Assembly (NCBI GenBank): GCA_041660505.1
Contig: JBAZWG010000001.1
Coordinates: 609,768-673,767 of the forward strand
Origin: Minisyncoccota bacterium
GTDB taxonomy: Bacteria; Patescibacteriota; Minisyncoccia; Phycocordibacterales; JACRKE01
Direction of reading: 5' to 3'
DNA: 64,000 nt
Shown here: positions 7,871 to 59,375 of the stretch, in pieces
Layout of the letters: every line of letters begins with the position of its first letter
Numbering within the stretch: position 1 is the first letter of the stretch
Made by a program: the position numbers and the translations under genes
The notes under the pieces: generated by a model
The model's input: the letters and a program-made list of their open reading frames with translations, nothing else
What the model was told of the DNA's origin: nothing
The model's database searches: none

Positions 7871-7957
7871 CGGATTCACATCCGCTCGGAAATCTACACG
7901 ATTCGTTCGTGGGAAAACATCCGGGTGGGTGTTTTCTTTTTCCTATAAAAAAATTAT

Positions 7958-7986
7958 TTGCTGTTAAGTTTTGCCTGTGTTATAAT
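7958..7986 (+). promoter_or_regulatory. promoter TTGCTG-N17-TATAAT
   Basis: Consensus spacing; sits upstream of the small basic ORF, which has RBS GGAAGGAG. Confidence 0.5.
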
Positions 7987-8075
7987 CATGAACTTCGCAA
8001 ACGCGAGGTGCTCAAAGTACGGCACCCGCGTCCGCGGAGTGTTATGTTCTTTGAGCTGAATGGAAGGAGAATGCC

Positions 8076-8294
8076 ATGTCTCTCACTCAACGGGAGTTCA
8101 GGAAGAACCTCGTCAAGGCCAAGAAGGCCAAGAGGATTCGGAAAATCAAGGAGAAGAGGCGCGCTTTGCGCGCTAAGAATGGCCAGCCGTCGCCGAATGG
8201 CGTGAAGCCTGCACGGGTGTCGCTCCCGCACATGAGCGACACCCTGCCTGTGCCGGCGGCCATGTTGGCTCAGCCGGCCCAGTCCGACCAGTGA
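8076..8294 (+). CDS. small Lys/Arg-rich basic protein (hypothetical)
   Basis: 72-aa ORF with a good RBS, followed by a hairpin plus T-run terminator at about 8307-8400. Confidence 0.5.
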   Translation: MSLTQREFRKNLVKAKKAKRIRKIKEKRRALRAKNGQPSPNGVKPARVSLPHMSDTLPVPAAMLAQPAQSDQ

Positions 8295-8306
8295 CCTTCC
8301 TAGTTC

Positions 8307-8400
8307 AGCAGTTCGCACCCCCGGGTGATTTTAATCTCGCGACTCACAGCGCGGGAGAGGGACACCGGGGGTGTTTCTTTTTTCTCCGGAATTTTCAAGA
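8307..8400 (+). terminator. intrinsic terminator (GCACCCCCGGGTG...CACCGGGGGTG plus T-run)
   Basis: Long GC stem followed by TTTCTTTTTTCT. Confidence 0.55.
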
Positions 8401-8546
8401 TTAGTCTTTTTCCGAAATTTGTTTTCTTATTTTTAAAACCGTTAGCGCGTTACTTTTTTTGTGTTAGACTCCGCATGATACAGAGACCAACTACTGAAAC
8501 AGACACGCGCCTTTGAACGGTGCATTTGACAAGGAGGAATGACAGC

Positions 8547-9404: not shown

Positions 9405-9420
9405 TACGGTCAACCTAGAA

Positions 9421-9455
9421 CCGGCTCCCTTCGTTCGCGAAGGGAGCCGGTTTCG
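9421..9455 (+). terminator. hairpin terminator CCGGCTCCCTTC-GTTCGC-GAAGGGAGCCGG followed by TTTCG
   Basis: Perfect 12-bp stem right after the aaRS-like gene. Confidence 0.55.
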
Positions 9456-9468
9456 CGTCTGCCTAGCA

Positions 9469-9512
9469 TTAGAAGGTTCAACCTTTTTGATGCTTAAGGT
9501 TGAACCTTCTTG
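9469..9512. repeat. AAGGTTCAACCTT / AAGGTTGAACCTT double-palindrome hairpin element (family copy a)
   Basis: Arms AGAAGGTTCAACCTT and AAGGTTGAACCTTCT are perfect reverse complements. Confidence 0.7.
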
Positions 9513-9583
9513 TGCGTTATAAAACGAAAAGGGGATCGCGACCTTGCGGTTGCGACCCCCTTTTGAACCAGATGAAAGCAGGA

Positions 9584-10189
9584 TTACTTCTTGCCCTTGC
9601 CGACGTCCATACTCACGGGGATGTCGGCTTCGCAGAACGAGCACTCCTCCGATGCCCATGAGTCGAGAGTGATGTTCACTAGCGACTCAAGCCTCGGCGC
9701 GCCAATATCGAAAGCGGTGACGCCTCCGCGATTGCAGATAGCGCCCACGCCCACGACCTCGCCGCCGATGGCGCGGACGACCTCGACGACCTTCTTCACC
9801 GAGCCGCCGGTCGTCAGGACATCCTCGACGACGAGCACTGTCTTGCCAGCCACGATCTTGTCGTAACCGCGCTTCACTACGAACCCGCCGTCGGCCGACT
9901 TCTCGGCGTAGACACTCATTGCGTCTGAGTGTACGAGCTCCGAGAGTTGATAGGCCACCCATTGGGAGAGGATGAGCCCGCCCATCGCGGGCCCGACGAC
10001 CACCTGCGGTCGTTCTGCCAAGAAGCGGCCGGCCAGGTACAGGCAGAGCTCGCCCGTCAACCTAGGATGCACGTAAATCGCATCCTTGTTGATGTACCTG
10101 TTGCCGTGCCGGCCACTTGTGTAGACGAAGTGGCCCTCGAGTAAGGCACCCACTGCCTTGATCTTCTCCATGACACTGACTTCTTTCAT
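9584..10189 (-). CDS. pyrE: orotate phosphoribosyltransferase
   Basis: PRTase motif VLVVEDVLTTGGS; start set at MKEVSVMEKIKAV, since the ORF track start is further upstream. Confidence 0.78.
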   Translation of the reverse strand: MKEVSVMEKIKAVGALLEGHFVYTSGRHGNRYINKDAIYVHPRLTGELCLYLAGRFLAERPQVVVGPAMGGLILSQWVAYQLSELVHSDAMSVYAEKSADGGFVVKRGYDKIVAGKTVLVVEDVLTTGGSVKKVVEVVRAIGGEVVGVGAICNRGGVTAFDIGAPRLESLVNITLDSWASEECSFCEADIPVSMDVGKGKK

Positions 10190-10205
10190 GAGACCTCCTT
10201 GCGGG

Positions 10206-11021
10206 TCATGATCGGTATCGGTTGATTGCGTCATGCAGTCGCTGCGTCTCGCGTCGCGCCGCCTCTGCGAAGTTCTGTCCGCCACCGGCGAAGATGATGC
10301 TCCGTGAGGCGGCAATGATCATGCCTTGACCCCGCGAGTCTTTGCCAGCAGCGACGGTCGCTTCGAGATCTCCGCCTTGCGCGCCGATACCCGGGACGAG
10401 GATTGGCATGTCGCCGACAATCTTGCGCACGGCGCGCAGTTCGTCGGGATATGTTGCGCCGACGACCACGGCACAGTTGCCGTTCTCGTTCCATGCGCAT
10501 GCAACGTTCAGGGCGACCACTCGGTAGAGCGGCACGCCGCCGACGAGCAGATTCTGGAATTCGCCGGCGCCGACATTTGACGACCTGCAGACGATTATAC
10601 AACCCTTGTCCTTCTGGGCGAGGAATGGCTCGAGAGCCTCCTTGCCGAAGTAAGGGTTCAGGGTGACGGCGTCGGCGTGCAGGTATCCGAACGCTTGCTC
10701 GACGTAGCCGACATTGGTGTTGCCAATGTCGGCGTACTTGGCGTCCAAGATGATCGGCACCTCGGGGGCGATGGCATTCGCCTCCGAGACGGTGTGATAG
10801 AGCGCGAGGATGCCCTCGATGCCTTGTGCCACGTAGAAGGCCAAATTGACTTTGTACGCGCAGACGAGGTCGCTGGTGTGCTCGATGATGGCGCGGTTGA
10901 ACGCGCGAATCCTATCGAGCTTCGACGGGTACTTGACCTCCGCCGGGATCTTGCCGAGCTCGCTGTCGAGTCCGACGCAGACGCTCTTGCCTTGCTCCCA
11001 CCGAGCCTTGAGCATCTCCAT
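10206..11021 (-). CDS. pyrF: orotidine 5'-phosphate decarboxylase (long type 2 form)
   Basis: ILDAKYADIGNT matches the OMPdecase DxKxxDIxNT motif; about 270 aa from MEMLKAR. Confidence 0.75.
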   Translation of the reverse strand: MEMLKARWEQGKSVCVGLDSELGKIPAEVKYPSKLDRIRAFNRAIIEHTSDLVCAYKVNLAFYVAQGIEGILALYHTVSEANAIAPEVPIILDAKYADIGNTNVGYVEQAFGYLHADAVTLNPYFGKEALEPFLAQKDKGCIIVCRSSNVGAGEFQNLLVGGVPLYRVVALNVACAWNENGNCAVVVGATYPDELRAVRKIVGDMPILVPGIGAQGGDLEATVAAGKDSRGQGMIIAASRSIIFAGGGQNFAEAARRETQRLHDAINRYRS

Positions 11022-11164
11022 GAAGTTTCTGGTCTTCAAATTCTGCCTCGCTTTCACTTGGTTCAATGAACAGTATGAGCCGGACTATCCGGCTCAAAAT
11101 CTCCTTGACACTATCAAAAATATAGTTAGAAATCAAGCTCGAAAATTTGCGGGAAATTATTTTT

Positions 11165-11210
11165 AAAACAAAAACAGGATGCCGGCTACAGAGAGCTTGC
11201 ATCCTGTTCG
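11165..11210 (-). terminator. intrinsic terminator after pyrD (CAGGATGC..GCATCCTG plus TTTTTGTTTT on the minus strand)
   Basis: 8-bp stem, T-run on the minus strand. Confidence 0.5.
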
Positions 11211-11230
11211 AGCGAACATTACCGGACGAG

Positions 11231-12124
11231 TCATTCGTCGGTGAGTTCGCTAAGGATCGATGAGAATATGGTCTCGCCCCGCTCCAGATAAGCGGTGGCG
11301 ATTTGCACGGCCGAGGCACCGGCCAAGATGTACTCGCGCACGCCGGTGCTATGGATAATGCCGCCGACGCCTATGAGTTGCTGGGTGCTCGGCAGGAGCG
11401 CACGCAGTTGCCTGACCTGCCCCAGGCCGATAGGCTTTAGTGCCGGGCCGGCCATGCCCGCGAGTCCTCCGGCTGGAGTGATTCGTGGCGCTTCACCATT
11501 GAGGCCGAAGGCGTTGGGAAAGGTGTTGACGGTTGTGACCGCCTTCACCAACTTCGACTTGCCGATCACCTCCGCCACTTGCGCAAGTTGGAAAGGGTCG
11601 GAGTAAGGCGAAACCTTACACGCGATCTTCGCCTCGGCTCCGACCCACGTTTCTACCTGTCGCAAGATGTTCGCAACAAGCACGGGGTCGAAGCAGGCAA
11701 TCCGCTTCTGCATCCCGCCCTGCCAGACGTTGGGACAGCCGAGGTTGAGCTCGACCATGTCGGCCCCGCCGGCGAAGGCGATCTTAGACATTATCGCGTA
11801 CTCCTCGGCCGAGAAGCCGGCGATACTCACGAAGAGTGGCTTGCCATGCGCATGTGCCTCCGCCACCATCGCGGGCAGTTTGAGCCCATAGTACTCTATC
11901 CCTCTATTCGGCAAGCCGAGAGAGTTTAGCGAGTAATCTGACTCTACCCAGTACACGTTGCCACCGTTGCCTTGACGAGGCTCCATGGTGATAGAGCCGA
12001 CCATGATGGCCGCGGTGGCAGAACGGGCGAGCTGGCTTACCTCCTCCAGCAGCCGGCAGGTACCCGCCGCGTTCATGAGCGGGTGCTCAAGCGGGATACC
12101 GGCGAGCGTAGTTTCAAAGTTCAT
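11231..12124 (-). CDS. pyrD: dihydroorotate dehydrogenase, class 1
   Basis: ELNLGCPN motif and TIM-barrel FMN-binding profile; RBS AAGGAGG before the ATG. Confidence 0.82.
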   Translation of the reverse strand: MNFETTLAGIPLEHPLMNAAGTCRLLEEVSQLARSATAAIMVGSITMEPRQGNGGNVYWVESDYSLNSLGLPNRGIEYYGLKLPAMVAEAHAHGKPLFVSIAGFSAEEYAIMSKIAFAGGADMVELNLGCPNVWQGGMQKRIACFDPVLVANILRQVETWVGAEAKIACKVSPYSDPFQLAQVAEVIGKSKLVKAVTTVNTFPNAFGLNGEAPRITPAGGLAGMAGPALKPIGLGQVRQLRALLPSTQQLIGVGGIIHSTGVREYILAGASAVQIATAYLERGETIFSSILSELTDE

Positions 12125-12217
12125 GTGACCTCCTTAAGGTCTTTTTTTGTGCTCGTTATTCTCTTTATGCTGTATGTAAGTTAACAAATATGACCTGTTT
12201 TATCAACACAAAAAAAC

Positions 12218-12246
12218 TTGCATAAAGACGCAATCTGTGCTATTAT
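12218..12246 (+). promoter_or_regulatory. promoter TTGCAT-N17-TATTAT (gTGcTATTAT extended -10), same architecture as the rnc promoter
   Basis: Exact spacing; followed by a 110-nt leader and RBS GAGGAGGG before the ATG at 12355. Confidence 0.5.
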
Positions 12247-12354
12247 CCATACCAGCTTGCTACCGTCCCTGATTACTTCAGGGTATGTTGCGGGAGCAAA
12301 TGAGACAGAACGCCCCAGAAAAATCTAGAGCGTTTTGTGTTTAGAGGAGGGACA

Positions 12355-12555
12355 ATGTCCTCGGTCTTCCACCCTACGGATCTGCTCGTCTTTCCCGCGC
12401 ATACCGAGCATGCGCGGCTGATTCTGCTCGCAGTTTGCGAGCATGAGGACGAGAAGATCCACTTCGAGGCGGCTCGGGCCGCAGACGTTCCCGTGCTTGT
12501 CGCGCTCTGCGACGTGTACGGGATTCCCCACACGGTCCAGCAGGAGGTGAGGTAA
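12355..12555 (+). CDS. small hypothetical protein, first of a coupled pair
   Basis: RBS plus ATG at 12355; stop overlaps the next ATG (TAAGATG). Confidence 0.4.
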   Translation: MSSVFHPTDLLVFPAHTEHARLILLAVCEHEDEKIHFEAARAADVPVLVALCDVYGIPHTVQQEVR

Positions 12556-12556
12556 G

Positions 12557-12760
12557 ATGGGACGACCCCCTTTCCGCACCACCGGCAGATACAGGTCACC
12601 GGCCGTTCAGCCGGAGAAGCCCATTGGCCGCTTCGGCAACGAGGATCCGCGGATTCTGCTGAACGAGCAGGAGCCGGCGGATCCCGAGGCCCAGCGCCGG
12701 GCCAACGTCCTCATGGGGCGCGACCCGGATGAGAAGGACCCTGGGCCGCCCCTCCTCTGA
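12557..12760 (+). CDS. small hypothetical Pro/Arg-rich protein, second of the coupled pair
   Basis: Tightly coupled to the upstream ORF; followed by an imperfect hairpin plus T-run at about 12790-12840. Confidence 0.4.
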   Translation: MGRPPFRTTGRYRSPAVQPEKPIGRFGNEDPRILLNEQEPADPEAQRRANVLMGRDPDEKDPGPPLL

Positions 12761-12935
12761 CACTCCCGCAACACTCGGTAAAGATCGCCCCGGTTCGCGC
12801 GTACACCATACGCTGCGAGCCGGGGCTTTCGACTTTTTATACACTTTGCGCTAGATATCTTTTATAGTATAGTAAATAGAATATTTATCTGCCTCTACGG
12901 CAGACCGCCGATGAGGCGGTTAATAAGAATAATTT

Positions 12936-13403
12936 ATGAATAATCGCAACATTGCAATTGTCATAGCCATCATCGTCATAATTATCCTCGGATACTTTAT
13001 GTTTTCGAAGAAGGCAGTGACCGCACAGAACGGCTCGGTTGTTACAGTTAATTACGTCGGCTCGCTCCAGAACGGCACCAAGTTCGATGCCTCGGCAGAT
13101 CACGGCGGTCCGCTCACACTTACACTCGGCCCTATTGGTCCGAACGGTGAAGGCTACGTCATCCCGGGTTGGGAAGAGGGACTTATCGGTATGACAGTCG
13201 GAGAGAAGAAGCACCTCGTTATTCCGCCGGAGAAAGCTTACGGCGACAAGCAGATGGGCCCTATCCCGCCGAACTCGACTCTTGTCTTCGATGTAGAAAT
13301 GCTTGATATCCAGCCAGCCGGCCCGAAGCCAGTAGAGCCTCATTTCCCACCGGCACCGGCCTTGGCCCAGCCAGAAACACAGGGCACAACTACAACGCAG
13401 TAG
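12936..13403 (+). CDS. FKBP-type peptidyl-prolyl cis-trans isomerase with N-terminal membrane anchor
   Basis: VTVNYVGSLQNGTKFD...GYVIPGWEEGLIGMTVGEKKHLVIPPEKAYG...LVFDVEMLDI is the canonical FKBP domain. Confidence 0.82.
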   Translation: MNNRNIAIVIAIIVIIILGYFMFSKKAVTAQNGSVVTVNYVGSLQNGTKFDASADHGGPLTLTLGPIGPNGEGYVIPGWEEGLIGMTVGEKKHLVIPPEKAYGDKQMGPIPPNSTLVFDVEMLDIQPAGPKPVEPHFPPAPALAQPETQGTTTTQ

Positions 13404-13423
13404 CCCACTGGCAGAGGTTCGAC

Positions 13424-13449
13424 CTTAGGCATTCAAAAGGTCGAACCTC
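13424..13449. repeat. hairpin element variant GAGGTTCGACCTT...AAGGTCGAACCTC (family copy b)
   Basis: Perfect 13-bp inverted repeat about 85 nt upstream of rpsN. Confidence 0.6.
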
Positions 13450-13532
13450 AAGAATGCATGCCAATACTTGCGTTAAGCCGTATAATTTGATAGTATTTCA
13501 TTCAAGCTCTTACGTAGAGCTTGAATGCTTTT

Positions 13533-13718
13533 ATGGCAAAAACATCAGTAATCGCGCGTTCGAAAAAGACGCCTAAATTCTCGACCAGATTGGTCCGCCG
13601 CTGTTTCCGTTGCGGTCGCAAGCGCGGCTACATGCGCGACTTCGACGTTTGCCGAATTTGCTTCCGCGAGCTAGCGAATGAAGGCATGATCCCGGGCATC
13701 CGGAAGTCAAGCTGGTAA
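13533..13718 (+). CDS. rpsN: 30S ribosomal protein S14 (zinc-binding type Z)
   Basis: MAKTSVIARSKK...CFRCGRKRGYMRDFDVCRICFRELA, CxxC...CxxC, 61 aa. Confidence 0.88.
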   Translation: MAKTSVIARSKKTPKFSTRLVRRCFRCGRKRGYMRDFDVCRICFRELANEGMIPGIRKSSW

Positions 13719-13728
13719 AATAATGACA

Positions 13729-13769
13729 AGAAGGTTCAACCTTTAAGATGCCCAAGGTTGAACCTTCTA
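13729..13769. repeat. AAGGTTCAACCTT double-palindrome hairpin element (family copy c)
   Basis: GAAGGTTCAACCTT-TAAGATGCCC-AAGGTTGAACCTTC; ends about 15 nt before the rpsH start. Confidence 0.7.
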
Positions 13770-13783
13770 GACAAAAATATTTC

Positions 13784-14182
13784 ATGACCATCGACCCATT
13801 AGCAAACATGCTCATCCAGATCAAGAACGGTAGCGTCGCCAAAAAGGAGACGATTACCGTGCCTTTGTCTAACATGAAGTTTGCTGTCGCAGAAGTTCTT
13901 AAGCGCGCCGGATTCGTGAAGGACACAGCCAAGCGCGGCAAGAAAGAGAATCGCTCATTCGAGATTGACTTGGCTTACACAACAGAAGGCGAGCCGAAGG
14001 TCACGGGCGTGGAGCGCATCTCCAAACTTTCGCGCCGAGTCTATGCCGGCGCCGGCGAGATTCGCAACTTGCGCCGAGGTAAGCCTGGTATGATGATACT
14101 CTCGACACCGAATGGTATCCTGACAGCATCGGAGGCCAAGAAAGCGAATGTTGGCGGGGAAGTTTTGTTCGCCATTTGGTAA
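13784..14182 (+). CDS. rpsH: 30S ribosomal protein S8
   Basis: MTIDPLANMLIQIKNG is the S8 N-terminus; the ORF-track start at 13748 lies inside the repeat, so the start was moved to 13784. Confidence 0.88.
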   Translation: MTIDPLANMLIQIKNGSVAKKETITVPLSNMKFAVAEVLKRAGFVKDTAKRGKKENRSFEIDLAYTTEGEPKVTGVERISKLSRRVYAGAGEIRNLRRGKPGMMILSTPNGILTASEAKKANVGGEVLFAIW

Positions 14183-14228
14183 TGGCTCACAGATTTAAAC
14201 ATTTCAAGATTTAAATATTTAAAAACTC

Positions 14229-14765
14229 ATGTCACGCGTCGGCAAACAAATTATCGAAATACCCGCAAAAGTTGAGGTTACGCTCAGCACCGGTACGATG
14301 CGCATCAAAGGACCTTTGGGCGAACTCACCAGAGAATTCAAAGACGACATCGAGATTACAATTGCCGACAAGCAAATTACACTTAAGCCGAAAGTCGAAA
14401 CGATTTTTACCCGCTCGCTCTGGGGCACATACGCCGCACACATCATCAACATGATCAAGGGCGTGACGGAAGGTTACATGAAGAAGATGACGATAGAGGG
14501 TGTCGGCTATAAAGTGGAGCTCAAAGGCACACAGCTCGTCTTCGCTCTCGGATTTTCTCACCCAGTACCGATGGATATCCCTAAGGGCATCAAAGCTGTT
14601 GTAGAGAAGAACGTTTTGACTATTTCCGGACCGGATAAAGATCTGGTCGGATTATTCTCCGCGCAGATTGTGGCGCACAAACCGCCGGAGCCGTACAAGG
14701 GTAAGGGTATAATTTACGCCGGTACTGTCGTCCGCAGGAAGCAGGGGAAGAGGTCTGTTGCTTAA
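14229..14765 (+). CDS. rplF: 50S ribosomal protein L6
   Basis: MSRVGKQIIEIPAKVEV..., two-domain L6 profile, 178 aa. Confidence 0.9.
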   Translation: MSRVGKQIIEIPAKVEVTLSTGTMRIKGPLGELTREFKDDIEITIADKQITLKPKVETIFTRSLWGTYAAHIINMIKGVTEGYMKKMTIEGVGYKVELKGTQLVFALGFSHPVPMDIPKGIKAVVEKNVLTISGPDKDLVGLFSAQIVAHKPPEPYKGKGIIYAGTVVRRKQGKRSVA

Positions 14766-14769
14766 CGGC

Positions 14770-14813
14770 TTAGAAGGTTAAACCTTCTAGATGCCCAAGG
14801 TTTAACCTTCTAA
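14770..14813. repeat. AAGGTTAAACCTT double-palindrome hairpin element (family copy d)
   Basis: TTAGAAGGTTAAACCTTCTAG-ATGCCC-AAGGTTTAACCTTCTAA, perfect 17-bp arms; the 44-mer is identical to copy e. Confidence 0.75.
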
Positions 14814-14826
14814 GACAAGACAAAAC

Positions 14827-15177
14827 ATGAAAACAACAAATTCAAAAAAATTAAAACGAGACCGACGCCACACGAAGATCAGGACGCGCGTTTTTGGTAC
14901 GTCTGCCAAGCCTCGCCTCGCAGTCTTCCGTTCCAACGCTTTCGTCTACGCACAGATTATCGATGATGAGGCGGGCAAGACACTTTTGGCCGCGAGCGAC
15001 CTCAAAATGAAAGATGGGACCAAGCTTGCGCGCGCAGAAAAAGTGGGCGAGACGATAGCTGTGGCTGCCAAGGCGAAGAAAATCGGTACTGTTGTATTTG
15101 ATCGCGGCGGATTCATCTACGCCGGACGCGTTAAGGCTGTTGCCGATGCCGCACGTAAAGGAGGATTGCAATTCTAA
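14827..15177 (+). CDS. rplR: 50S ribosomal protein L18
   Basis: [28 protein letters not shown]... is an L18 profile. Confidence 0.9.
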
Positions 15178-15213
15178 AGTTGAAAGTCAAAAGTATAAAG
15201 TTCATAAAGTAAA

Positions 15214-15879
15214 ATGGAAGACACTACAAAAAAAACAGAATCAGCAGTTCCTACGCCGAAGCCAGCCGGTAGCCCGATTTACGTACCCAAGGAGCCTTCA
15301 AGAAGCTATCAAGGACAAGGCGGCCCGCGCAATTCGAGCGGTCCTCGCACGGGAGGTGCTCCGGGGGGAGGTCAAGGAGGCTTCGGCGGACAGCGCGGAG
15401 GTCCGCGCGGTCAAGGTGGCCGAGGCGGAGACAGGCGTGCACCGCGCACACCTTCGGAATACGATCAGAAAATTTTGAACATTCGCCGTGTGGCGCGTGT
15501 TGTGGCCGGTGGCCGTCGCTTCACTTTCTCTGTCGCTATGGTGCTCGGCAACCGCAAGGGTTCTGTCGGCGTCGGTGTCGGCAAGGCGGGAGATACGACC
15601 TTGGCTATCGACAAAGCTTCGCGTGTTGCCAAGAAGCACATGATCAAGCTCAACCTGACGAAGGACAAATCCATCGCTCACGAAATCACCGAGAAATACT
15701 CAAGCGCGACAGTAATGCTCCGCCCGGCCAAGGGTAAGGGGCTTGTTGCCGGCAGTGCTGTGCGCTCTGTGCTCGAGCTCGGCGGTGTAACAGACACGAC
15801 AGCGAAGATTCTTTCACCGTCGAAGAACAAATTGAACATCGCGCAAGCGACGATAAAGGCACTGAACAAACTCAAATAA
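15214..15879 (+). CDS. rpsE: 30S ribosomal protein S5 with Gly/Arg-rich N-terminal extension
   Basis: Conserved S5 core ILNIRRVARVVAGGRRFTFSVAMVLGN...; unusual about 80-aa GGRGG/GQRGG low-complexity N-terminus. Confidence 0.9.
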   Translation: MEDTTKKTESAVPTPKPAGSPIYVPKEPSRSYQGQGGPRNSSGPRTGGAPGGGQGGFGGQRGGPRGQGGRGGDRRAPRTPSEYDQKILNIRRVARVVAGGRRFTFSVAMVLGNRKGSVGVGVGKAGDTTLAIDKASRVAKKHMIKLNLTKDKSIAHEITEKYSSATVMLRPAKGKGLVAGSAVRSVLELGGVTDTTAKILSPSKNKLNIAQATIKALNKLK

Positions 15880-15888
15880 TTTTAACGA

Positions 15889-15933
15889 CTTAGAAGGTTA
15901 AACCTTCTAGATGCCCAAGGTTTAACCTTCTAA
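15889..15933. repeat. AAGGTTAAACCTT double-palindrome hairpin element (family copy e, identical to copy d)
   Basis: Identical 44-mer and nearly identical downstream spacer CTAAGACAA(G/A)ACAAAACATG. Confidence 0.75.
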
Positions 15934-15942
15934 GACAAAAAC

Positions 15943-16374
15943 ATGCAATCCCACGAACTCAAGCGCAAACATCCGAATAAACGAACCAAGCTCGTTGGCC
16001 GTGGCAGTAAGCGCGGTAAGACGTCCGGTCGCGGTACCAAAGGCCAGAACGCCCGCGCCGGTCACAAAAAACGCCCCGAAATTCGCGAGCGTATCAAGAA
16101 GATTCCTAAACTCCGCGGTTATCGCTGGAACGGTGCTATTATGGACAAGGCGATTGTCATTAATGTCGGCGACCTGAACAAGTTCGAGGCCGGCGCCGAG
16201 GTTACCCCGCGCACGCTCGTGAAGAAGCATCTCATCAATATGCCGAAGGATGCGCGCATGATTGTGAAGATTCTTGGCGGAGGCGAAATCAAGCTTGCCT
16301 ACAAAGTTTCTCACTGCTTCGTCTCGAAGAGTGCAAAAGAGAAGATTGAGAAAGCGGGAGGAACAGTGAAATAA
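15943..16374 (+). CDS. rplO: 50S ribosomal protein L15
   Basis: KRTKLVGRGSKRGKTSGRGTKGQNARAG is the L15 N-terminus; it follows S5 directly, so no L30 gene is present. Confidence 0.9.
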   Translation: MQSHELKRKHPNKRTKLVGRGSKRGKTSGRGTKGQNARAGHKKRPEIRERIKKIPKLRGYRWNGAIMDKAIVINVGDLNKFEAGAEVTPRTLVKKHLINMPKDARMIVKILGGGEIKLAYKVSHCFVSKSAKEKIEKAGGTVK

Positions 16375-16434
16375 TGAACTCGGAAGCCTTGCTTCTGAGA
16401 ACAAGACCCGGAAGCGAGGCTTCCAAGTACAAAA

Positions 16435-17706
16435 ATGGACAAATTCATAGAAAAACTCAAAGTTGTTTTCGGAGATAAGAACCTGCGCAACCGGGTCTAT
16501 TTCGTTCTCGGCGCGCTTATTATCTTCCGCTTCCTTTCATCTATTCCCATTGCGGGCGTTGATAAACTCAAGCTCGATCAATTGCTGACAGGCAATCAAT
16601 TCCTCGGCTTCTTGAACATTTTCTCCGGCGGCGGGCTCTCGACCCTTTCTATTGTCATGCTCGGAGTCGGCCCCTATATCACCGGCTCTATTATAATGCA
16701 GCTCCTTACTATCATCTTCCCCAAGCTTAAGGAGATGTATCAAGAGGATGGCGAAGCTGGCAGAAAGAAGTTCGTTCAATATTCACGTCTCCTCACCGTG
16801 CCTCTGGCAATCTTCCAGGGCTTCGGACTTTTATTTTTACTTCGCCAATCAGGCGTCGTTGTGGCCGACACTGTCTTCGATCAGATGGTTAACATCATCG
16901 TCGTCACTGGCGGCTCTGTCCTCGTGATGTGGATAGGCGAGCTTATGACCGAATATGGCATAGGCAACGGTACGTCTATAATAATCTTCGCAGGTATCAT
17001 TGCACAGATGCCGTCGACTATCGGCCAGATGTTCGCCTCGTTTACTGTGGCGCAGATCCCGACCTATCTCGTATTTCTCGTAGTCTCCATCATCATCATC
17101 GCCGGTGTAGTAATAATTACAGAAGCAGAGCGCCCAGTGCCAGTGACTTATGCCAAGCGTGTGCGCGGGGCCAAGATGTACGGCGGTGTTTCGACGTATC
17201 TGCCGATACGCTTGAATCAGGCAGGCGTCATGCCGATAATTTTCGCGCTCTCGCTCTTGCTTTTGCCCCAGATGATAGCGACATTCCTCCTCGGCCTGCA
17301 TCAGTCAACTTTGCAGGCGATAGGAACATTCCTTCGCGACTTGGTGGCGAACCAGCTTTACTATGCGATCTTCTATTTCCTTCTCGTTTTTCTCTTCACT
17401 TACTTCTATACGGCCATCACCTTCGACCCAGACAATATCGCGACAAACTTACAGAAGAACGGCGCCTTCATCCCCGGTGTTCGCCCCGGCAAGCCGACGG
17501 CCGAGCACTTATCCCGTATTCTCGTGCGCGTGACCTTTGTCGGCGCATTATTCCTTGGTATAATCGCAGTGTTACCTCTGGGCATCAGATCTATTACCGG
17601 CATCACCGCGTTATCTATCGGCGGTACCTCGCTCCTCATCGTTGTGTCCGTGGTGCTTGATCTCATTAAGCAGATGAACGCGCAGATCTCGATGAGAGAG
17701 TACTAA
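16435..17706 (+). CDS. secY: preprotein translocase subunit SecY
   Basis: 10-TM profile, 423 aa, canonical position after rplO. Confidence 0.9.
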   Translation: MDKFIEKLKVVFGDKNLRNRVYFVLGALIIFRFLSSIPIAGVDKLKLDQLLTGNQFLGFLNIFSGGGLSTLSIVMLGVGPYITGSIIMQLLTIIFPKLKEMYQEDGEAGRKKFVQYSRLLTVPLAIFQGFGLLFLLRQSGVVVADTVFDQMVNIIVVTGGSVLVMWIGELMTEYGIGNGTSIIIFAGIIAQMPSTIGQMFASFTVAQIPTYLVFLVVSIIIIAGVVIITEAERPVPVTYAKRVRGAKMYGGVSTYLPIRLNQAGVMPIIFALSLLLLPQMIATFLLGLHQSTLQAIGTFLRDLVANQLYYAIFYFLLVFLFTYFYTAITFDPDNIATNLQKNGAFIPGVRPGKPTAEHLSRILVRVTFVGALFLGIIAVLPLGIRSITGITALSIGGTSLLIVVSVVLDLIKQMNAQISMREY

Positions 17707-17781: not shown

Positions 17782-18378
17782 ATGCAACTCAAAACCGTCA
17801 TCTTCATGGGTCGCTCCGGTTCCGGTAAGGGGACGCAGGCGAAGTTGCTTGTCGATGAACTCGTCCTAAAAGGCGTGAACGTTAACGACATAATGAACGT
17901 CTCATCCGGGGAACTCTTCCGCGCTTTTGCTAAGGATGGCGGTTATACTCAAGACAAGATTCGCGCCGTAATGGCGGCGGGCAATCGCGTCCCGGACTTC
18001 CTCGCTGTGCGCCTCTGGGGTAATTGGCTGGTGCAGACATATCGCCCGAGTTTGAATATTATTTTGGACGGCACCCCGCGCTCGCACGCCGAGGCGCGCA
18101 TGCTCGAGAACGCCCTCGTTTTTTATGAACGCAACCCGATAGAGATCGTCAATATCAAAGTGTCTAACGAGTGGTCTATAGAACGCTTATCGGCGCGCAA
18201 ACGCTTGGACGATTCATCCCTTGATACCATCAAGCATCGCCTCGCTTTTTATGAAGACGATGTGCTCGAGGCGATAGATTATTATCGCGGATCGCCCAAA
18301 GTCCGCTTCTCTGAGATTAACGGCGAACAGACGATAGAAGAGGTGCATAAAGATGTCTCAAAGGCGGTATTTGGATAA
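17782..18378 (+). CDS. adk: adenylate kinase, short form lacking a zinc LID
   Basis: P-loop GRSGSGKGTQA; NIILDGTPRS; 198 aa; canonical position after secY. Confidence 0.82.
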   Translation: MQLKTVIFMGRSGSGKGTQAKLLVDELVLKGVNVNDIMNVSSGELFRAFAKDGGYTQDKIRAVMAAGNRVPDFLAVRLWGNWLVQTYRPSLNIILDGTPRSHAEARMLENALVFYERNPIEIVNIKVSNEWSIERLSARKRLDDSSLDTIKHRLAFYEDDVLEAIDYYRGSPKVRFSEINGEQTIEEVHKDVSKAVFG

Positions 18379-18422: not shown

Positions 18423-19184
18423 ATGTCGTATATCAAATCTTCACAAGAAATAGAGATTTTGCGAGAAGGCGGGCGGAGGCTCGCTCTTGTGCTTAAAGAG
18501 GTTGCAGCCGCAACGAAGGCCGGAGTGATGCCGAAAGAGCTTGATGCGCTTGCAGAGAAATTAATTCGTGCGGGCGGTGATGAGCCGGCATTTTTAAACT
18601 ATCAGCCCGACATGGCGCGCATACCATTCCCTGCGACATTATGTGTATCGGTAAACGACGCCGTTGTGCACGGTATTCCGGGCGAGACTCCGCTCGTGAA
18701 CGGCGACATCGTCGGTCTCGACCTCGGGCTCAAACACCGAGGGCTTTTTACCGATGCCGCGGTCACTGTCGCTATCGGTAAAATCAGTAAAGAAGCAAAA
18801 GAGCTTATGAAAATCACGCGTGAAGCATTAGAGCTCGGCATCAATGAAGCTAGAGCCGGCAATTACACTGGCGACATTGGCTACGTCATCGAACGTCATG
18901 TTGCACCGCATCACTATGGTATTGTGCGCGAACTATCGGGCCACGGTGTCGGCCATGAGATTCATGAAGAGCCGTACATTCCCAATTATGGCAAAAGGGG
19001 AGAAGGCATGAAATTAAAAGCGGGCATGGTCATTGCGATTGAGCCGATGATAAACCTTGGTAGTGGCGATATCCGACTTGCAAAAGACAAATTCACCTAC
19101 GCGACCAAAGACGGTTCTCTCTCCGCCCACTTCGAGCACACGCTGGTCATCACCGACGGCGCACCCGAAGTTCTCACGCGTTAA
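18423..19184 (+). CDS. map: methionine aminopeptidase type I
   Basis: Pita-bread fold metal ligands at VHGIP, GDIVGLD, HGVGHEIHE and IEPM; 253 aa. Confidence 0.9.
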   Translation: MSYIKSSQEIEILREGGRRLALVLKEVAAATKAGVMPKELDALAEKLIRAGGDEPAFLNYQPDMARIPFPATLCVSVNDAVVHGIPGETPLVNGDIVGLDLGLKHRGLFTDAAVTVAIGKISKEAKELMKITREALELGINEARAGNYTGDIGYVIERHVAPHHYGIVRELSGHGVGHEIHEEPYIPNYGKRGEGMKLKAGMVIAIEPMINLGSGDIRLAKDKFTYATKDGSLSAHFEHTLVITDGAPEVLTR

Positions 19185-19205
19185 AATTCCCGAGGCCTCG
19201 GGGAA

Positions 19206-21512
19206 CTATAATGAACCGCCGCCGGAATCTGACGTTGGGTCGAAGTATTCGTATTCGGCTGTGGCGGTGCTGGTGCCGACTGCATTGGCCATATAGCCAC
19301 GTACCCAATACTCCACATCTACCGGATGTGTGAAGTCTATATACTGCCAGTCATCGGCGGGGTCTCCCCATATTGGCTCGGTTGCAAGCGGGAGAAAGGT
19401 TGGTCCATTAGGCCCCTCTGTGCTGTATCTAAGTTCCGCATAAGTGAGAGGATTACTACCGATTTCTGGCGACGCGAAGAGTCTATCGCCACGATGCATA
19501 ATCCCGGCATCGTCTTCGTAAGAGAAATAATAAATATCTGTAGGGGCGTTAGGGACTACACCGGGTATCATTGCGATCACATTGGACGCGGTACTCGTCC
19601 CGGCGTTGTTTATTGCGAAAACTTTGAACGAATATTGCGTGCCGTTCGCGAGTTCGGTTATGAGATAACCTGTTGTGGTGCCTGTGCCGTCAACAAGAAT
19701 GTCATCATTGCTCGTGAACCCATCTGTGCTCTTGTGAATTTCGTAATCCGTTAATTCTCCGCCGTCATCCGCTGGTGCTGACCAAGCGAGCGAAGCGCTT
19801 GCGTTGCCCCGTGTGGCGGTTAAACTTTGCGGCGCGCTTGGTGCGACTATCGGGCTTACCGGTGTTGCTGTCACAATGTCTGACGCCGAGCTCGTGCCCG
19901 CGCGATTGATAGCAAAAATTTTGAAATAATAAGCCGTACTATTTGTGAGCCCGGCGACGAGCGTACTTGTGGCGATACTGACACCGTCATCAAGTGTTGT
20001 ATCCGTTTCAGAAAAATTATCGGTGCTCTCGTGAATTTCGTAATCGGTAATCGGAGCATCGGTAACTTCAGTCGGAGAGAGCCATGAGAGTAATACAGTC
20101 GCATCACCGGCAACAGCGAGCGGCGAGAGCGGCGCGCTAGACGTTGCATATGTCGGATCCGGTTCGGGTTCGGGCTCTGATGGCGGAGGTTTAACCTCCG
20201 CAATAGGGACGCCGGTACCGCCACCGCCGAAACCGGGCGAGAGAATTTGAAATACGCTCGTTATCGAGGCTGTCGGTTTTGGCAATTCTGCTTTCGGCGC
20301 CTCTGTCTTCACGGCAGGAGGTGCCGGTTCCACCGGCTTTTTCGGCATCGCACGTAACTCTGCGTGCTGTTCGCGCAGACCGATCGCGCGGTCTTGCAGA
20401 CTTTGTATCTGGCGCACGAGAGCGTCGGTTTCTGCTTGAGTCAGTGTGCGCGGCGGTTGCGGGGCGGGTGCTACTTGGACGATAGCTTTCGGCGTCAGAC
20501 CCGTCACGAACATCGTTTCTTTATGCGGTATAGGAATAATGATAGGCGTCGGTTTGCCGAGTATCGCGATAGTGAAGGCGGAAGCAACTGTGTAGAGCGC
20601 CCCGCCAACCCCCTTTGCTATTGCCGATGTTGTGGTTATTACTGCATTCGCGCTGTCACCGACGGTCTTCATGCCTAAGTTGGCCAGAGGGTCCGCGACA
20701 ACGAAAACGAGGCTCTGGACTTTATGCACGAGCGAGAGTTCCGGTGGGTCGATGCACTTTTTGTCTGGTGCTTGCACATCGTTCGGCTTTAATTTATCCA
20801 AGGACTTCTGAATGGCCGAGACGATTTCTGCTCCGCGATATTTGAGATAGACAGTGGCGAAGCCGTGGCCGGTCTCGTCCCTCTCAAACTCGAGATCGAT
20901 GTGCGTGTTGGGCGCCATTATAGTACGTGAAAGGGTAGAATTGACGATGCCTGCGATGACTTTATCGGTGTCGGAGGTGAGCCATTGCCCTCCGCCGGCT
21001 ACGCGGGATGACGGCGTGGCAACACTGTACACGCCAATGGACTGTGGCGGAACATCCGGCCCCTCCCCAGCCCTCCCCGAAGGAGAGGGAGATGATGCCG
21101 TAACTTTGTCATAAAAGCTGTTGGCATAAAAATTGCCCTGTGAATGGGCAACGAGGAGGAGCTTTTGCGTTGTTACTTTCTGACTCGCGGAGTTCAGTAT
21201 CTCCGTCAAGTCATAATCGCTCACGACCTCGTCGTCAAAGTACTTCTGATTTGCGGCATCCAAAATATCCTTAACCCCGGCAAGGTTGGTGTCGTTGAGG
21301 AGATATTGATAATCCAGACGTTCGTTTTTATAAGAAAGACCTAGAGTATCCCTAAGTGCTTTCATGTTTACTCTAGCTCCAGCGTCGTCTGTAAAAACAC
21401 CGTTGACGGTTGCTACAGTGTATCCATCTTTCGTGCATTGGGTAACTACCGAGGCAAGAACAAAATTTGGTAGTAAACAGATACCTAAGATTAAGCCTGT
21501 TTTAACATTCAT
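19206..21512 (-). CDS. secreted alpha/beta-hydrolase (lipase/esterase-like) with two C-terminal fibronectin type III domains
   Basis: Signal peptide MNVKTGLILGICLL; nucleophile elbow LLLVAHSQGNF (GxSxG type); two Fn3-like repeats (LxWSAPADDGGELTDYEIH...YSFKVFAIN); start set at the internal Met with the signal peptide. Confidence 0.6.
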   Translation of the reverse strand: MNVKTGLILGICLLPNFVLASVVTQCTKDGYTVATVNGVFTDDAGARVNMKALRDTLGLSYKNERLDYQYLLNDTNLAGVKDILDAANQKYFDDEVVSDYDLTEILNSASQKVTTQKLLLVAHSQGNFYANSFYDKVTASSPSPSGRAGEGPDVPPQSIGVYSVATPSSRVAGGGQWLTSDTDKVIAGIVNSTLSRTIMAPNTHIDLEFERDETGHGFATVYLKYRGAEIVSAIQKSLDKLKPNDVQAPDKKCIDPPELSLVHKVQSLVFVVADPLANLGMKTVGDSANAVITTTSAIAKGVGGALYTVASAFTIAILGKPTPIIIPIPHKETMFVTGLTPKAIVQVAPAPQPPRTLTQAETDALVRQIQSLQDRAIGLREQHAELRAMPKKPVEPAPPAVKTEAPKAELPKPTASITSVFQILSPGFGGGGTGVPIAEVKPPPSEPEPEPDPTYATSSAPLSPLAVAGDATVLLSWLSPTEVTDAPITDYEIHESTDNFSETDTTLDDGVSIATSTLVAGLTNSTAYYFKIFAINRAGTSSASDIVTATPVSPIVAPSAPQSLTATRGNASASLAWSAPADDGGELTDYEIHKSTDGFTSNDDILVDGTGTTTGYLITELANGTQYSFKVFAINNAGTSTASNVIAMIPGVVPNAPTDIYYFSYEDDAGIMHRGDRLFASPEIGSNPLTYAELRYSTEGPNGPTFLPLATEPIWGDPADDWQYIDFTHPVDVEYWVRGYMANAVGTSTATAEYEYFDPTSDSGGGSL
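21061..21092. repeat. GC-rich palindromic element copy, in-frame in the minus-strand hydrolase gene
   Basis: CCCTCCCCAGCCCTCCCCGAAGGAGAGGGA; its reverse-complement reading frame gives SPSPSGRAGEGP in the protein. Confidence 0.75.
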
Positions 21513-21513
21513 T

Positions 21514-22122
21514 TTAGTTAGGCAGTGTGGTTGGTTGTATGTCACACCCACCGTCAGATGGCCCCCCGCTTTGTAAATTATTGTTGATAAGGTCTTTAAG
21601 ATATTTAGTTCTTGCTGTTGAGTTAAGCTGAAGTTTTTCAACAAAGCTTCTGTATTTATTTACATCAGCAATAAATTTTGTCATATCGGATCGCGAACTA
21701 AGACTCCACAAACATACATCTGCGTGGCCTTCTAAATCCTCAATTGTCGCCGAAACTGTTCCTCCGTTCACAAGCTGTAGCGTCATTTCGGTTTGTAATG
21801 CTAAGGCATACTGAAGAAGTGGAGAACGTATCTTGGCACTATCGGGATAGGTTTGGAATATTGCCAGTTCGACGTCGTCGCGGATGCCGTTTTTGTTGGC
21901 GTCTACGCCAGCAATAGTTGCATCCGGCGAGGCGGGGACAGGCGGCAAATTTTTACCCATTACATCATTCAGTGTAAGCTTGGTCGCATGGATGCGCGCA
22001 ACTTGCACGGCTGTCTGCTTGGCTCGTTCGAGCACGTACATTCTGTAGAAGACCAACACCGCGAACAGCACAAAAATAACCGTCCCCGCTCGGGAAAGGT
22101 AAGTTGTAAGAGATTTTTTCAT
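21514..22122 (-). CDS. membrane-anchored hypothetical protein
   Basis: N-terminal TM helix; ORF abuts the downstream hydrolase gene (operon). Confidence 0.5.
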   Translation of the reverse strand: MKKSLTTYLSRAGTVIFVLFAVLVFYRMYVLERAKQTAVQVARIHATKLTLNDVMGKNLPPVPASPDATIAGVDANKNGIRDDVELAIFQTYPDSAKIRSPLLQYALALQTEMTLQLVNGGTVSATIEDLEGHADVCLWSLSSRSDMTKFIADVNKYRSFVEKLQLNSTARTKYLKDLINNNLQSGGPSDGGCDIQPTTLPN

Positions 22123-22169
22123 TTGCCGACACTATATACCTTTCATTCGATTTGCGCCACATTTTTATG

Positions 22170-22550
22170 CACCATAAAAGAGAACAAGCCCCGGAGTCTT
22201 GGGAGACTGGGGGCTTGTTCAGGTTGACGACGAATCTGATCATTCCAAGTTGGAGTGTCACCCGCCGAAGAGAAGAGAGAAGGCTTGCTAGCGTTCCTCC
22301 TCCTGTTTGCAGGCAGTGTTCTCGCTCTAACCGGTCGTTTCAAGTGCCAAGAACGACCGGGCTCACGTGTCGCCATGACGGGCGATTACACTGTTGACAC
22401 TAGAACTCGGCCAGCAACCATCCTATTCTACTTCCGACCGCAATGGCTCGCTCAACGAGCACGCGCGGCGGTGGGGAGGGTGTTTTTTGCTGGTCTTATG
22501 ACCATGCCCTGTTACGGGCAGATTCGTCTATTTCCTGAAAGAACGTAACC
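22170..22550 (-). ncRNA. candidate structured ncRNA (about 380 nt, unidentified)
   Basis: Minus-strand promoter-like TTTGAC-N16-TATAAT at about 22558-22585; minus-strand intrinsic terminator (11-bp GC stem 22182-22220 plus TCTCTTTT); 10-bp long-range closing helix GACGAAUCUG/CAGAUUCGUC; several internal hairpins; no credible ORF; a 530-bp non-coding gap in an otherwise compact region. Confidence 0.35.
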
Positions 22551-22595
22551 CGAAGATATTATACCCAAATTAACGTTCGGTCAAATCGCTTTTTG

Positions 22596-22606
22596 TGCTA
22601 TTATAT
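22596..22606 (+). promoter_or_regulatory. extended -10 element gTGcTATTAT for the downstream plus-strand operon
   Basis: Same TGcTATTAT motif as the promoters at 7111 and 12238. Confidence 0.35.
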
Positions 22607-22854
22607 CCCCAGAATTTATTTATATATTAAGTACAAGTAATAATAAGAATAATATGTCAGAAGAAAATATGCCGGAGCCGGAGTTGGAGATAGTGCCGGA
22701 GCCCGAAAAAACACAAGTCCCTGCGCCCGTTATCTTCCCGGACATAGTGCCCAAAACAGACGAGCCGGAAAAGCCGACGATACACTAAATATTCTTAGCC
22801 TCGTTGTCCACTGTTTTATTTTGCGCGGCATACTCGGCGTTATATAATACAGGG

Positions 22855-23214
22855 ATGGAAGGCTCACCGAAGCTCTATAAAGAGTCGCGCCCGTGGGGGA
22901 ACTTCGAACGCTTCACCCTGAACGAACCGACGACAGTCAAGATAATCACGGTTAACCCCGATGAGGCCTTTAGTTTGCAAACACATGATCATCGCAACGA
23001 ATTCTGGCGCGTGCTTAATGGCTCCGGCTTGGTGCAGATAGGGGAGGCGGAGCATGAGGCGCAGGAAGGCGATTCTTTCCTCATCAAGGCGCACGAGAAG
23101 CACCGCGCAACGGCCGGTACGAACGGGCTGGTTATGCTGGAAATTGCCTTCGGCGAGTTCGATGAAAAAGATCTTACTCGAATAGAAGATCGTTATGGGC
23201 GCGCTCAACAATAA
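22855..23214 (+). CDS. cupin-fold protein, mannose-6-phosphate isomerase type II (ManC C-terminal) like
   Basis: WGNFERF...VKIITVNPDEAFSLQTHDHRNEFWRVLNGSG...EGDSFLI...HEKHR cupin motifs with His ligands. Confidence 0.62.
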   Translation: MEGSPKLYKESRPWGNFERFTLNEPTTVKIITVNPDEAFSLQTHDHRNEFWRVLNGSGLVQIGEAEHEAQEGDSFLIKAHEKHRATAGTNGLVMLEIAFGEFDEKDLTRIEDRYGRAQQ

Positions 23215-24316
23215 TCCTAATAATTTTTGGCCGGTCGTTTTATTCTTCCTCGCGATATTCGCCTTAGCCTTTTTCTATCATTGGCTCACACGCAAGAAAA
23301 TTTCGGCGCCGGTCATACTCCTTCGCTTGCCCGAGAATCCCATCCTCTCGCCCGTCAAAGAACATTGGTGGGAGTCAGAGGCGGTCTTCAATCCCGCAGC
23401 GTTCGTGGATGACGGCAAAGTACACCTCTTCTATCGCGCCTTGGGCCGTGATGGCATTTCGCGCATTGGCTACGCCTGGAGTACGGACGGCTTGCACTTC
23501 GAGCGTTTGTCATACCCCGTATTCTCTGCCGAGAACGTGCAGGAAGTGAAGAGCCACTTCCCCTACACCTCGCCGGTGCGCTTGTCCTATGACACGGTCA
23601 ACAATCCATCCGGTGGCGGCTGGGGAGGCTTAGAAGACCCGCGGGCTATAAAGATTGACGGCCGTATTTACCTTACCTTCAACGCTTTCAACGGCTGGGA
23701 GTCGATGCGCGTCGGCTTGACCTCGATAAGCGAAGAAGATTTTAAAAATAAGAATTGGAACTGGCGCAAGTTCGTCTACCTTACCGACGAACGCAACAAG
23801 AATTGGATGTTCTTCCCCGATAAAATTAACGACAAGTTCGCGCTCCTCCACAGTATCTACAGCGAGAATGGCGAACGCGTCCAGATTAAATATCTTGATA
23901 GCTTGCATATTCACGGCCCGCTCCAGAATCTCAAGTCCGCCGACCCGCACAGGCTTAAGGACCAGAAGATAGCCTGGCACTATCGCATCCGCAGTGCCGG
24001 CACGCCGCCGTTGCGCACCAAGTACGGCTGGCTGGTCTTGTACCACGCAATGGATCCGAATGAGCCGAGCCGGTACAAAGTCGGCGCCCTGCTCCTCGAC
24101 CTCGCTTCGCCCACCAAGGTCATCGCGCGGAGCGACCATCCTATCCTCGAGCCGGACATGTGGTACGAGAACGATTGGAAGCCGGGGATAGTCTACGCCT
24201 CCGGTGCTGTAGTTCTCGGTGAAGATCTCATGGTCTACTACGGCGGCGGTGACAAATATGTCGCCGGCGCAAAAGTGAATTTGGAGTTGCTTATCAAGAG
24301 CCTAATGCGACAGTAG
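23195..24316 (+). CDS. GH130-family glycoside phosphorylase-like protein (DUF377), N-terminal TM anchor
   Basis: NPA..YRALG.DG.SRIGYA.S.DG motif and C-terminal VYYGGGD; five-bladed propeller family signature. Confidence 0.68.
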   Translation: MGALNNNPNNFWPVVLFFLAIFALAFFYHWLTRKKISAPVILLRLPENPILSPVKEHWWESEAVFNPAAFVDDGKVHLFYRALGRDGISRIGYAWSTDGLHFERLSYPVFSAENVQEVKSHFPYTSPVRLSYDTVNNPSGGGWGGLEDPRAIKIDGRIYLTFNAFNGWESMRVGLTSISEEDFKNKNWNWRKFVYLTDERNKNWMFFPDKINDKFALLHSIYSENGERVQIKYLDSLHIHGPLQNLKSADPHRLKDQKIAWHYRIRSAGTPPLRTKYGWLVLYHAMDPNEPSRYKVGALLLDLASPTKVIARSDHPILEPDMWYENDWKPGIVYASGAVVLGEDLMVYYGGGDKYVAGAKVNLELLIKSLMRQ

Positions 24317-59363: not shown

Positions 59364-59375
59364 CCTTTCCCCGTG

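Follow-up and report, generated by a model that had tools for sequence, protein, structure and literature searches.

A candidate structured RNA gene of about 375 nt in the largest non-coding gap of a 64-kb Paceibacterota sequence

Gene neighbourhood and coding capacity of the gap

The genome under study, a metagenome-assembled groundwater member of Candidatus Paceibacterota (CPR/Patescibacteria), was analysed over a window of 64 kb (the whole stretch of DNA presented above), which lies on a contig of 719 kb, is approximately 93% coding, and contains a tRNA-Ile (62-134) as its sole match to Rfam 15 at the gathering threshold. In the region of interest, genes for SecY, adenylate kinase and methionine aminopeptidase are followed by a minus-strand pair encoding an FN3-containing protein and a membrane-anchored protein of 202 aa, and then by a 44-aa ORF, a cupin gene and a GH130 phosphorylase gene (Table 1). 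The ATG codons of the 202-aa gene and of the 44-aa ORF delimit a gap of 531 bp (22123-22653), which is the biggest non-coding stretch of the window, the runners-up measuring 336, 297 and 256 bp. Between the 202-aa gene and the cupin gene, the 44-aa ORF is the only annotated feature. Logan run SRR18595301 contains this sequence as well.

Table 1. Coordinates of the genes, transcription signals and predicted RNA elements in and around the gap (positions in the window)
Feature	Position	Strand	Remarks
SecY	16435-17706	plus
Adenylate kinase (Adk)	17782-18378	plus
Methionine aminopeptidase, map (Peptidase_M24)	18423-19184	plus
Downstream gene pair of the inserted block (202 aa + ~810 aa)	19206-22122	minus
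FN3-containing protein, ~810 aa	19206-21644	minus
202-aa membrane-anchored protein, WC764_03390 (NCBI locus)	21514-22122	minus	ATG 22122-22120
-10 region of the 202-aa gene, GGTATATAGTGT	22129-22140	minus	TATAGT at 22136-22131
Intrinsic terminator	22174-22220	minus	stem 22220-22210 with 22192-22182, inner 5-bp hairpin, then UCUUUUAU
Predicted primary transcript, ~377 nt	22174-22551	minus	predicted from promoter and terminator
Closing helix, 3' arm, CAGAUUCGUCGUCAACCUGAA	22218-22238	minus	perfect core 22238-22229
Domain B, branched, ~166 nt	22245-22410	minus	contains GGAGGAGGAA / CU-rich helix
Hairpin in domain B, CUUGGCACUUGA	22331-22360	minus	perfect 9 bp, 12-nt loop
Domain A, 83-nt irregular hairpin	22411-22493	minus	MFE and centroid structures agree
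Closing helix, 5' arm, UUCAGGAAAUAGACGAAUCUG	22519-22539	minus	perfect 10-nt core 22528-22519
-10 hexamer TATAAT	22558-22563	minus	15 nt downstream of TTGACC
-35-like hexamer TTGACC	22579-22584	minus	5/6 positions of TTGACA
Second TATAAT	22605-22600	minus
44-aa ORF, WC764_03395	22654-22788	plus	ATG 22654
Cupin	22804-23214
GH130 phosphorylase	23195-24316		followed by nucleotidyltransferase and EamA transporter

Gene order around the gap differs among related genomes. Among the loci with the closest GH130 homologues (64-68% identity), the SecY, Adk, map, cupin and GH130 genes are contiguous in L085 and L086, while L082 and L083 carry other, unrelated small genes between map and cupin; none of these loci has the RNA candidate. 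In the genome studied here, map and cupin are separated by a 3.5-kb minus-strand block with the RNA candidate at its head, the order being promoter, structured RNA candidate, terminator, 202-aa gene and 810-aa gene. Judged from these gene orders, the map-cupin interval is a variable spot among related genomes, in which the 3.5-kb block has been placed here. No attachment sites or direct repeats were found at the borders of the block (19185-22800, compared with L082-L086).

The gap contains open frames of 97 aa (22255-22548, plus strand), 81, 77 and 98 aa, as well as shorter ones, none of which matched a Pfam family. A phmmer search with the 97-aa ORF against 1.84 billion representative proteins returned unrelated repeat-protein noise and no real homologue, and the six frames of 22160-22600, joined as one query, gave zero matches at E<=10 against 5.8 billion protein clusters. 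The gap ORFs were called by neither NCBI, JGI nor Logan, are absent from a collection of 15 billion proteins, and either traverse the terminator described below or sit antisense to the promoter/terminator pair. The period-3 power of the gap is 0.86, compared to 0.76 ± 0.46 for shuffled sequence and a window median of 3.47, which places the gap in the lowest 5% of windows. The region is non-coding and does not have the look of a recently decayed gene. A coding-free gap of about 530 bp with spurious overlapping ORFs had already been proposed in a sequence-only reading of this DNA, and both points are confirmed. No DnaA boxes were found in the gap, and the idea of a replication origin was dropped; tandem repeats are absent from 22000-22900, so that CRISPR or TIGR-type guide arrays are not supported, and defence systems were looked for and none was found. 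Elsewhere in the window (5406-7040), a 515-aa minus-strand ORF overlaps a 381-aa plus-strand ORF, neither having a Pfam family.

Transcription signals and predicted fold

On the minus strand of the gap, a promoter-like pair of hexamers (TTGACC-15-TATAAT) matches 11 of 12 positions, with a spacer of 15 nt that is short and suboptimal; seven sites of comparable promoter quality occur in the 128 kb formed by both strands of the window. The terminator further down the same strand has a perfect stem (11/11 bp) and a U-tract, UCUUUUAU, at 22181-22174. It scores -24.3 kcal/mol and lies within the top three terminator-like hairpins of the window in a scan for hairpins followed by a U-tract. The other strong hairpins of this kind are located mostly at the 3' ends of genes, which indicates that the organism uses intrinsic terminators. 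A further minus-strand hairpin resembling a terminator (-28.3 kcal/mol, approximately 47175-47215) is located between the plus-strand genes 45750-47168 and 47236-47874, and serves no obvious minus-strand gene.

Based on the -10 box, a transcript would start at approximately 22551, and the U-tract would place its end at approximately 22175. The gap thus shows a promoter-like site and an intrinsic terminator with no ORF between them, the combination by which stand-alone bacterial sRNA genes are recognized. The sequence-only reading had pointed to a promoter-like site at about 22558-22585, to a minus-strand terminator with an 11-bp stem at 22182-22220 and to the lack of a minus-strand gene upstream of this terminator; all three observations stand, no protein gene being located between promoter and terminator.

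The 5' region of the predicted RNA and the segment preceding its terminator can form a closing helix. The long-range pairing of 10 bp described in the earlier reading was recovered in full (GACGAAUCUG, 22528-22519, with CAGAUUCGUC, 22238-22229; 10/10 bp) and is part of a 21-nt inverted repeat that is 76% complementary (22539-22519 with 22238-22218). The 3' arm of this helix shares its last 3 nt with the base of the terminator stem. The frequency of perfect long-range inverted repeats of at least 10 bp was 2.8% among dinucleotide shuffles and 5.4% among real windows of equal length; the 10-bp closing helix is unusual, not extreme. Inside the helix, the structure is divided into domain A, with a C-rich 5' side and a purine-rich internal loop (GGAAGUAGAAUAGGAUGG), and the branched domain B.

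Thermodynamic stability was calibrated against the remainder of the sequence. A 386-nt minus-strand RNA folds with -157.3 kcal/mol (shuffle z = -5.75), or with z = -4.46 when its terminator is left out, and the plus strand of the gap folds nearly equally well (z = -5.21). Of 59 windows of 386 nt drawn at random from this DNA, nine (15%) had z < -4 and four had z < -5.4, these low-scoring ones all being located in coding regions, so the z-score alone does not single out the gap. Coding sequence folds unusually well in this genome, and a z-score by itself cannot identify an RNA gene here: many coding windows in 5600-17500 and 59000-61000 (e.g. in pyrimidine-biosynthesis genes) have dinucleotide-shuffle z-scores of -4 to -6.

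The 322-nt core enclosed by the helix (22539-22218) was also scored for how well defined its structural ensemble is. With an ensemble diversity of 0.072 per nt (background 0.235 ± 0.067) and a positional entropy of 0.31 (background 1.02 ± 0.28), it had the lowest value of 120 windows for both measures. When both strands were scanned densely, the core came 11th of 3184 windows for ensemble definition, with an MFE of about -2.6 SD given its G+C content, and two intergenic hairpin clusters, at 9404-9584 and 59364-59699, clearly outscored it. The former is a convergent intergenic region with three tandem hairpins, two of which have perfect stems of 15-16 bp; these are probably stacked bidirectional terminators, and the surrounding region (9330-9760, plus strand; -200.6 kcal/mol, z = -10.3) is the strongest fold of the window and corresponds to no Rfam family. 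The latter is the second-largest gap of the window (336 bp, plus strand), flanked by two genes without a Pfam family; approximately five hairpins are arranged in tandem in it, one of them a terminator near 59470-59498, and it has the best-defined ensemble of the window (diversity 0.05 per nt), and its Rfam matches were noise below threshold.

Comparison with known RNA families and with related genomes

The size and architecture of the candidate had led the sequence-only reading to consider RNase P RNA, tmRNA or another housekeeping RNA, and to propose a covariance-model scan. With Rfam 15, nothing was found in the gap when the whole window was searched at the gathering threshold, and on 22050-22750, both strands, the only result at E<=10 was algC noise (E=3, plus strand). 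For RNase P RNA, neither RNaseP_bact_a nor RNaseP_bact_b matched at either threshold, no P4 pseudoknot sequences (CR-I/CR-V) were seen by eye in the RNA, and its universality is not reflected among relatives, since neither the sequence nor its two domains occur in the 447-500 kb of related loci searched. For tmRNA, ARAGORN reported none in the window and none on 21900-22900 at an 80% threshold, no Rfam tmRNA model matched, and inspection by eye showed no T-arm. The 6S RNA model of Rfam did not match; unlike the ~180-nt rod with a central bubble that characterizes 6S RNA, the candidate is branched, in its MFE as in its centroid structure, and has a core of ~320 nt. Rfam SRP models gave no match at E<=10, and no cis-regulatory family (riboswitch, T-box or leader) was found beyond the algC noise on the opposite strand.

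Patescibacteria are known to harbour group I introns, tRNA introns among them, that escape standard annotation (PMC13011429); a custom covariance model (gpI_bact_tRNA.cm) was used in that study. In the gap, the group I intron model RF00028 was unmatched at E<=10, and neither flanking exons nor tRNA halves were seen by eye; ARAGORN with introns allowed predicted no tRNA at default settings, and implausible intron-containing calls appeared only at thresholds of 70-80%.

The lack of any Rfam or ARAGORN match, together with the position of the gap in a non-conserved inserted block, means that a housekeeping RNA is not supported. Conservation of the closing helix in relatives, which the earlier reading had named as a further check, could not be seen either, as no homologue was found in the collections searched. 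These two results remove the housekeeping part of that reading and leave a lineage-specific RNA standing. Its proposal of a structured minus-strand RNA of ~380 nt is upheld as far as a well-defined fold closed by the described helix is concerned, and lacks a homologue and covariation.

The search for relatives of the candidate was guided by the adjacent 202-aa protein, which belongs to a large family in Paceibacteria (1010 matches). Its top non-self identity of 64% indicates that the lineage is sparsely sampled. Neither nhmmer nor blastn revealed similarity to the candidate in 80 genome loci with homologues of the 202-aa protein, and no homologue was present in 90 related loci (447 kb). The four closest relatives of the 202-aa gene (L087-L090) have no long upstream gap, and blastn and nhmmer found no RNA there. 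Single-sequence covariance models of domain A (R1) and domain B (R2), run against 500 kb, recovered the element itself only. Phage and plasmid collections gave no blastn match to the gap. A pattern built from both arms of the closing helix had 0 matches in a metagenome scan; in a second one, the 12 matches to an 18-mer taken from the hairpin loop were all due to chance and showed no extended similarity. Two viral scans had 0 matches. Because none of the searches yielded a homologue, the fold is backed by neither covariation nor other evolutionary evidence, and its function cannot be deduced.

The genes upstream of the 202-aa homologues were compared as well. In many relatives (L011, L012, L016, L017, L021, L026, L033, L036, L037, L052, L068, L077), this position is occupied by a protein of ~225 aa with the motif EYYH(I/L)YNRG.DK, which we take to have an IS200/RAYT-like Y1 transposase fold and which is absent from the window. 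A pseudogene of these RAYT-like or of other upstream genes was rejected, as tblastn was negative with the exception of one weak, isolated match of 20 aa judged to be due to chance; a pseudogene of the N-terminal extension carried by some homologues was likewise rejected.

Directly upstream of the 202-aa gene, a -10 box, TATAGT, ends 8 nt before the ATG, and the 12-mer that contains it, GGTATATAGTGT, is identical upstream of the gene of the closest relative (L087). Among ~70 relatives, the -10 box of the 202-aa family mostly ends approximately 8-14 nt before the ATG and is often TGn-extended, which suggests, from sequence comparison, that the mRNAs of this family have very short leaders or none and may have a regulator in common. 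In about half of the ~70 loci (L009-L089), a DnaA-box-like motif, (A)GTTATCCACAG, occurs in perfect or near-perfect form approximately 45-60 nt upstream of the 202-aa homologues; the window has only a degenerate copy (22150-22158).

The upstream gaps of the 202-aa homologues are mostly ~100 nt, and measure 18-194 nt in the four closest relatives, which retain the gene pair (202 aa and ~860 aa). Of 66 loci scanned, that of the window included, 17 have a terminator-like hairpin in the 400 nt preceding the 202-aa gene; in approximately eight relatives it is located 43-84 nt before the start codon, the same position as here, and apparently belongs to the upstream protein gene. This placement and the proximal -10 box of the gene itself indicate that the unit ending at the terminator (22220-22182) is a separate one, located upstream of the gene pair.

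Interpretation and likeness to known systems

We tentatively favour the view that the gap contains a lineage-specific, independently transcribed structured RNA of ~375 nt, which is predicted from a single example. This view is supported by the presence of the largest gap in a window that is ~93% coding, by the lack of any ORF family, homologue or period-3 signal, by the combination of promoter-like site, terminator, closing helix and fold, and by the proximal -10 box that the downstream gene has kept. The points that weigh against it are the orphan status of the sequence, the 15-nt promoter spacer, the comparable fold of the plus strand, the 15% of windows with z < -4, the better-scoring hairpin clusters, and the 3-5% chance of obtaining the helix. 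Slightly less probable is that a functional RNA of this kind occurs in a single, sparsely sampled lineage of Paceibacteria and founds a family that Rfam 15 does not contain; such an RNA might bind or scaffold proteins and might have been acquired together with the surface-protein pair.

Under the favoured view, a sigma-70-type promoter (TTGACC-15-TATAAT) would start a minus-strand RNA near 22551. The 21-nt helix would join its 5' end to the segment preceding the terminator and thereby close the 322-nt core, which would comprise a first hairpin, domain A as a rod of 83 nt, and domain B as a branched part of ~166 nt. A Rho-independent terminator would stop the RNA near 22175 and would also insulate the downstream 202-aa and 810-aa surface-protein pair, which would be transcribed from its own -10 box with a very short mRNA leader or none. 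Transcription and stability of the RNA are predicted on the basis of motifs, fold quality and context; if it acts at the RNA level, it most likely does so in trans or by binding a protein.

The main rival, which we consider rather unlikely, is that the gap is a non-functional leftover spacer: ~330 nt would have been carried along with a moved or inserted 3.5-kb block, the terminator would stem from a lost upstream gene, and the promoter and closing helix would have arisen by chance. The map-cupin spot does vary among the relatives, none of which has the gap sequence, and this sequence was an orphan in every search; furthermore, the terminator-like hairpins found at the same place in approximately eight relatives, the other hairpin-rich intergenic stretches in the window, and the fact that each single statistic lies only in the 1-5% range all agree with a spacer. 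However, a spacer is difficult to reconcile with a streamlined genome in which this gap is the biggest in 64 kb, and with promoter, closing helix and terminator occurring in a gene-like order and spacing. Nor is there a trace of a former gene, given the empty six-frame search at E<=10, the lack of period-3 signal, and the lack of any match to genes or N-terminal extensions of relatives.

A cis-acting leader or attenuator, improbable in our view, would make the 202-aa and 810-aa operon accessible from the 22584 promoter only upon read-through of the terminator, a step that a ligand or protein bound to the ~330-nt structure would control. The candidate lies on the same strand directly upstream of the operon, with its terminator ~50 nt (22173-22123) before the start codon. 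The outer helix arm and the base of the terminator overlap by 3 nt, which is too small for a switch against a hairpin of -24 kcal/mol; truncated folds allow the 5' strand of the terminator to pair with the 5' end of the RNA, and such alternative pairings are weak. The operon has a conserved -10 box of its own, 8 nt from the ATG, an arrangement shared by most of the 70 relatives; this implies that the RNA candidate is not an obligatory leader and makes an attenuator role unlikely. A long leader occurs in none of the relatives, and no riboswitch, T-box or leader family was matched.

It is much less probable that the 21-nt imperfect inverted repeats are the termini of a MITE-like non-autonomous mobile element. 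The repeats (76%, with the perfect 10-bp core) surround 280 bp and are located in a variable spot, but the element is present as a single copy within the 64-kb window, no target-site duplication is seen at its arms, the inverted-repeat pattern was unmatched in the metagenome collection, and no transposase gene is located nearby. An overlooked protein gene, be it the 97-aa plus-strand ORF or a small minus-strand ORF, is very improbable: the open frames of 97, 81 and 77 aa in the gap have no support from Pfam, phmmer, the six-frame search, gene callers or period-3 signal, and conflict with the promoter/terminator pair. The least credible explanation is a strongly diverged housekeeping RNA (RNase P RNA, tmRNA, 6S RNA or SRP RNA) or a group I intron, in spite of the RNase P-like size and closing helix and of the hidden group I introns of Patescibacteria, given the negative Rfam 15, ARAGORN and visual searches and the non-conserved inserted block.

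Returning to the favoured view of a lineage-specific structured RNA, the non-coding RNAs of CPR/Patescibacteria are almost uncharted, and a well-folded RNA of 375 nt in a 0.7-Mb genome that wastes little DNA would be worth testing. Its immediate value is limited by its being a single example, without covariation, partner or phylogenetic spread. The firm results are negative, in that the gap is not RNase P RNA, tmRNA, SRP RNA or 6S RNA, nor a protein gene; that folding z-scores alone do not discriminate RNA genes in this genome is a lesson of the same analysis.

Among known systems, bacterial RNase P RNA is of similar length and has the layout predicted here, with a helix that pairs its 5' and 3' ends, a hairpin after it and a body of several domains. 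In contrast to the candidate, it is recognized by covariance models, which gave no match at E<=10, it has P4 strands and CR-I/CR-V, which are not visible here, and it is universal, whereas the gap candidate is absent from the relatives examined. Attenuation leaders (riboswitches, T-box and protein-dependent leaders) share with the candidate a structured RNA and an intrinsic terminator shortly before a same-strand gene; the candidate differs in that its downstream gene has its own proximal -10 box, in that it shows no convincing antiterminator and no family match, and in that the homologous genes of 70 relatives lack such a leader.

OLE, GOLLD, HEARO, ROOL and raiA are large structured RNAs that were found as G+C-rich intergenic regions. 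The candidate came to notice in a similar way, as an intergenic region of unusual length that folds well. Those RNAs, however, rest on many covarying homologues, whereas the candidate is a single case and corresponds to none of them in Rfam 15. Compared to stand-alone bacterial sRNA genes, the candidate, with ~375 nt and a closed multi-domain fold, is larger and more structured than typical base-pairing sRNAs of 50-250 nt. It resembles such genes in its promoter-like site, its Rho-independent terminator and its lack of coding capacity, in its intergenic position divergent from the neighbouring operon, and in its restriction to one lineage, as is found for species-restricted sRNAs.
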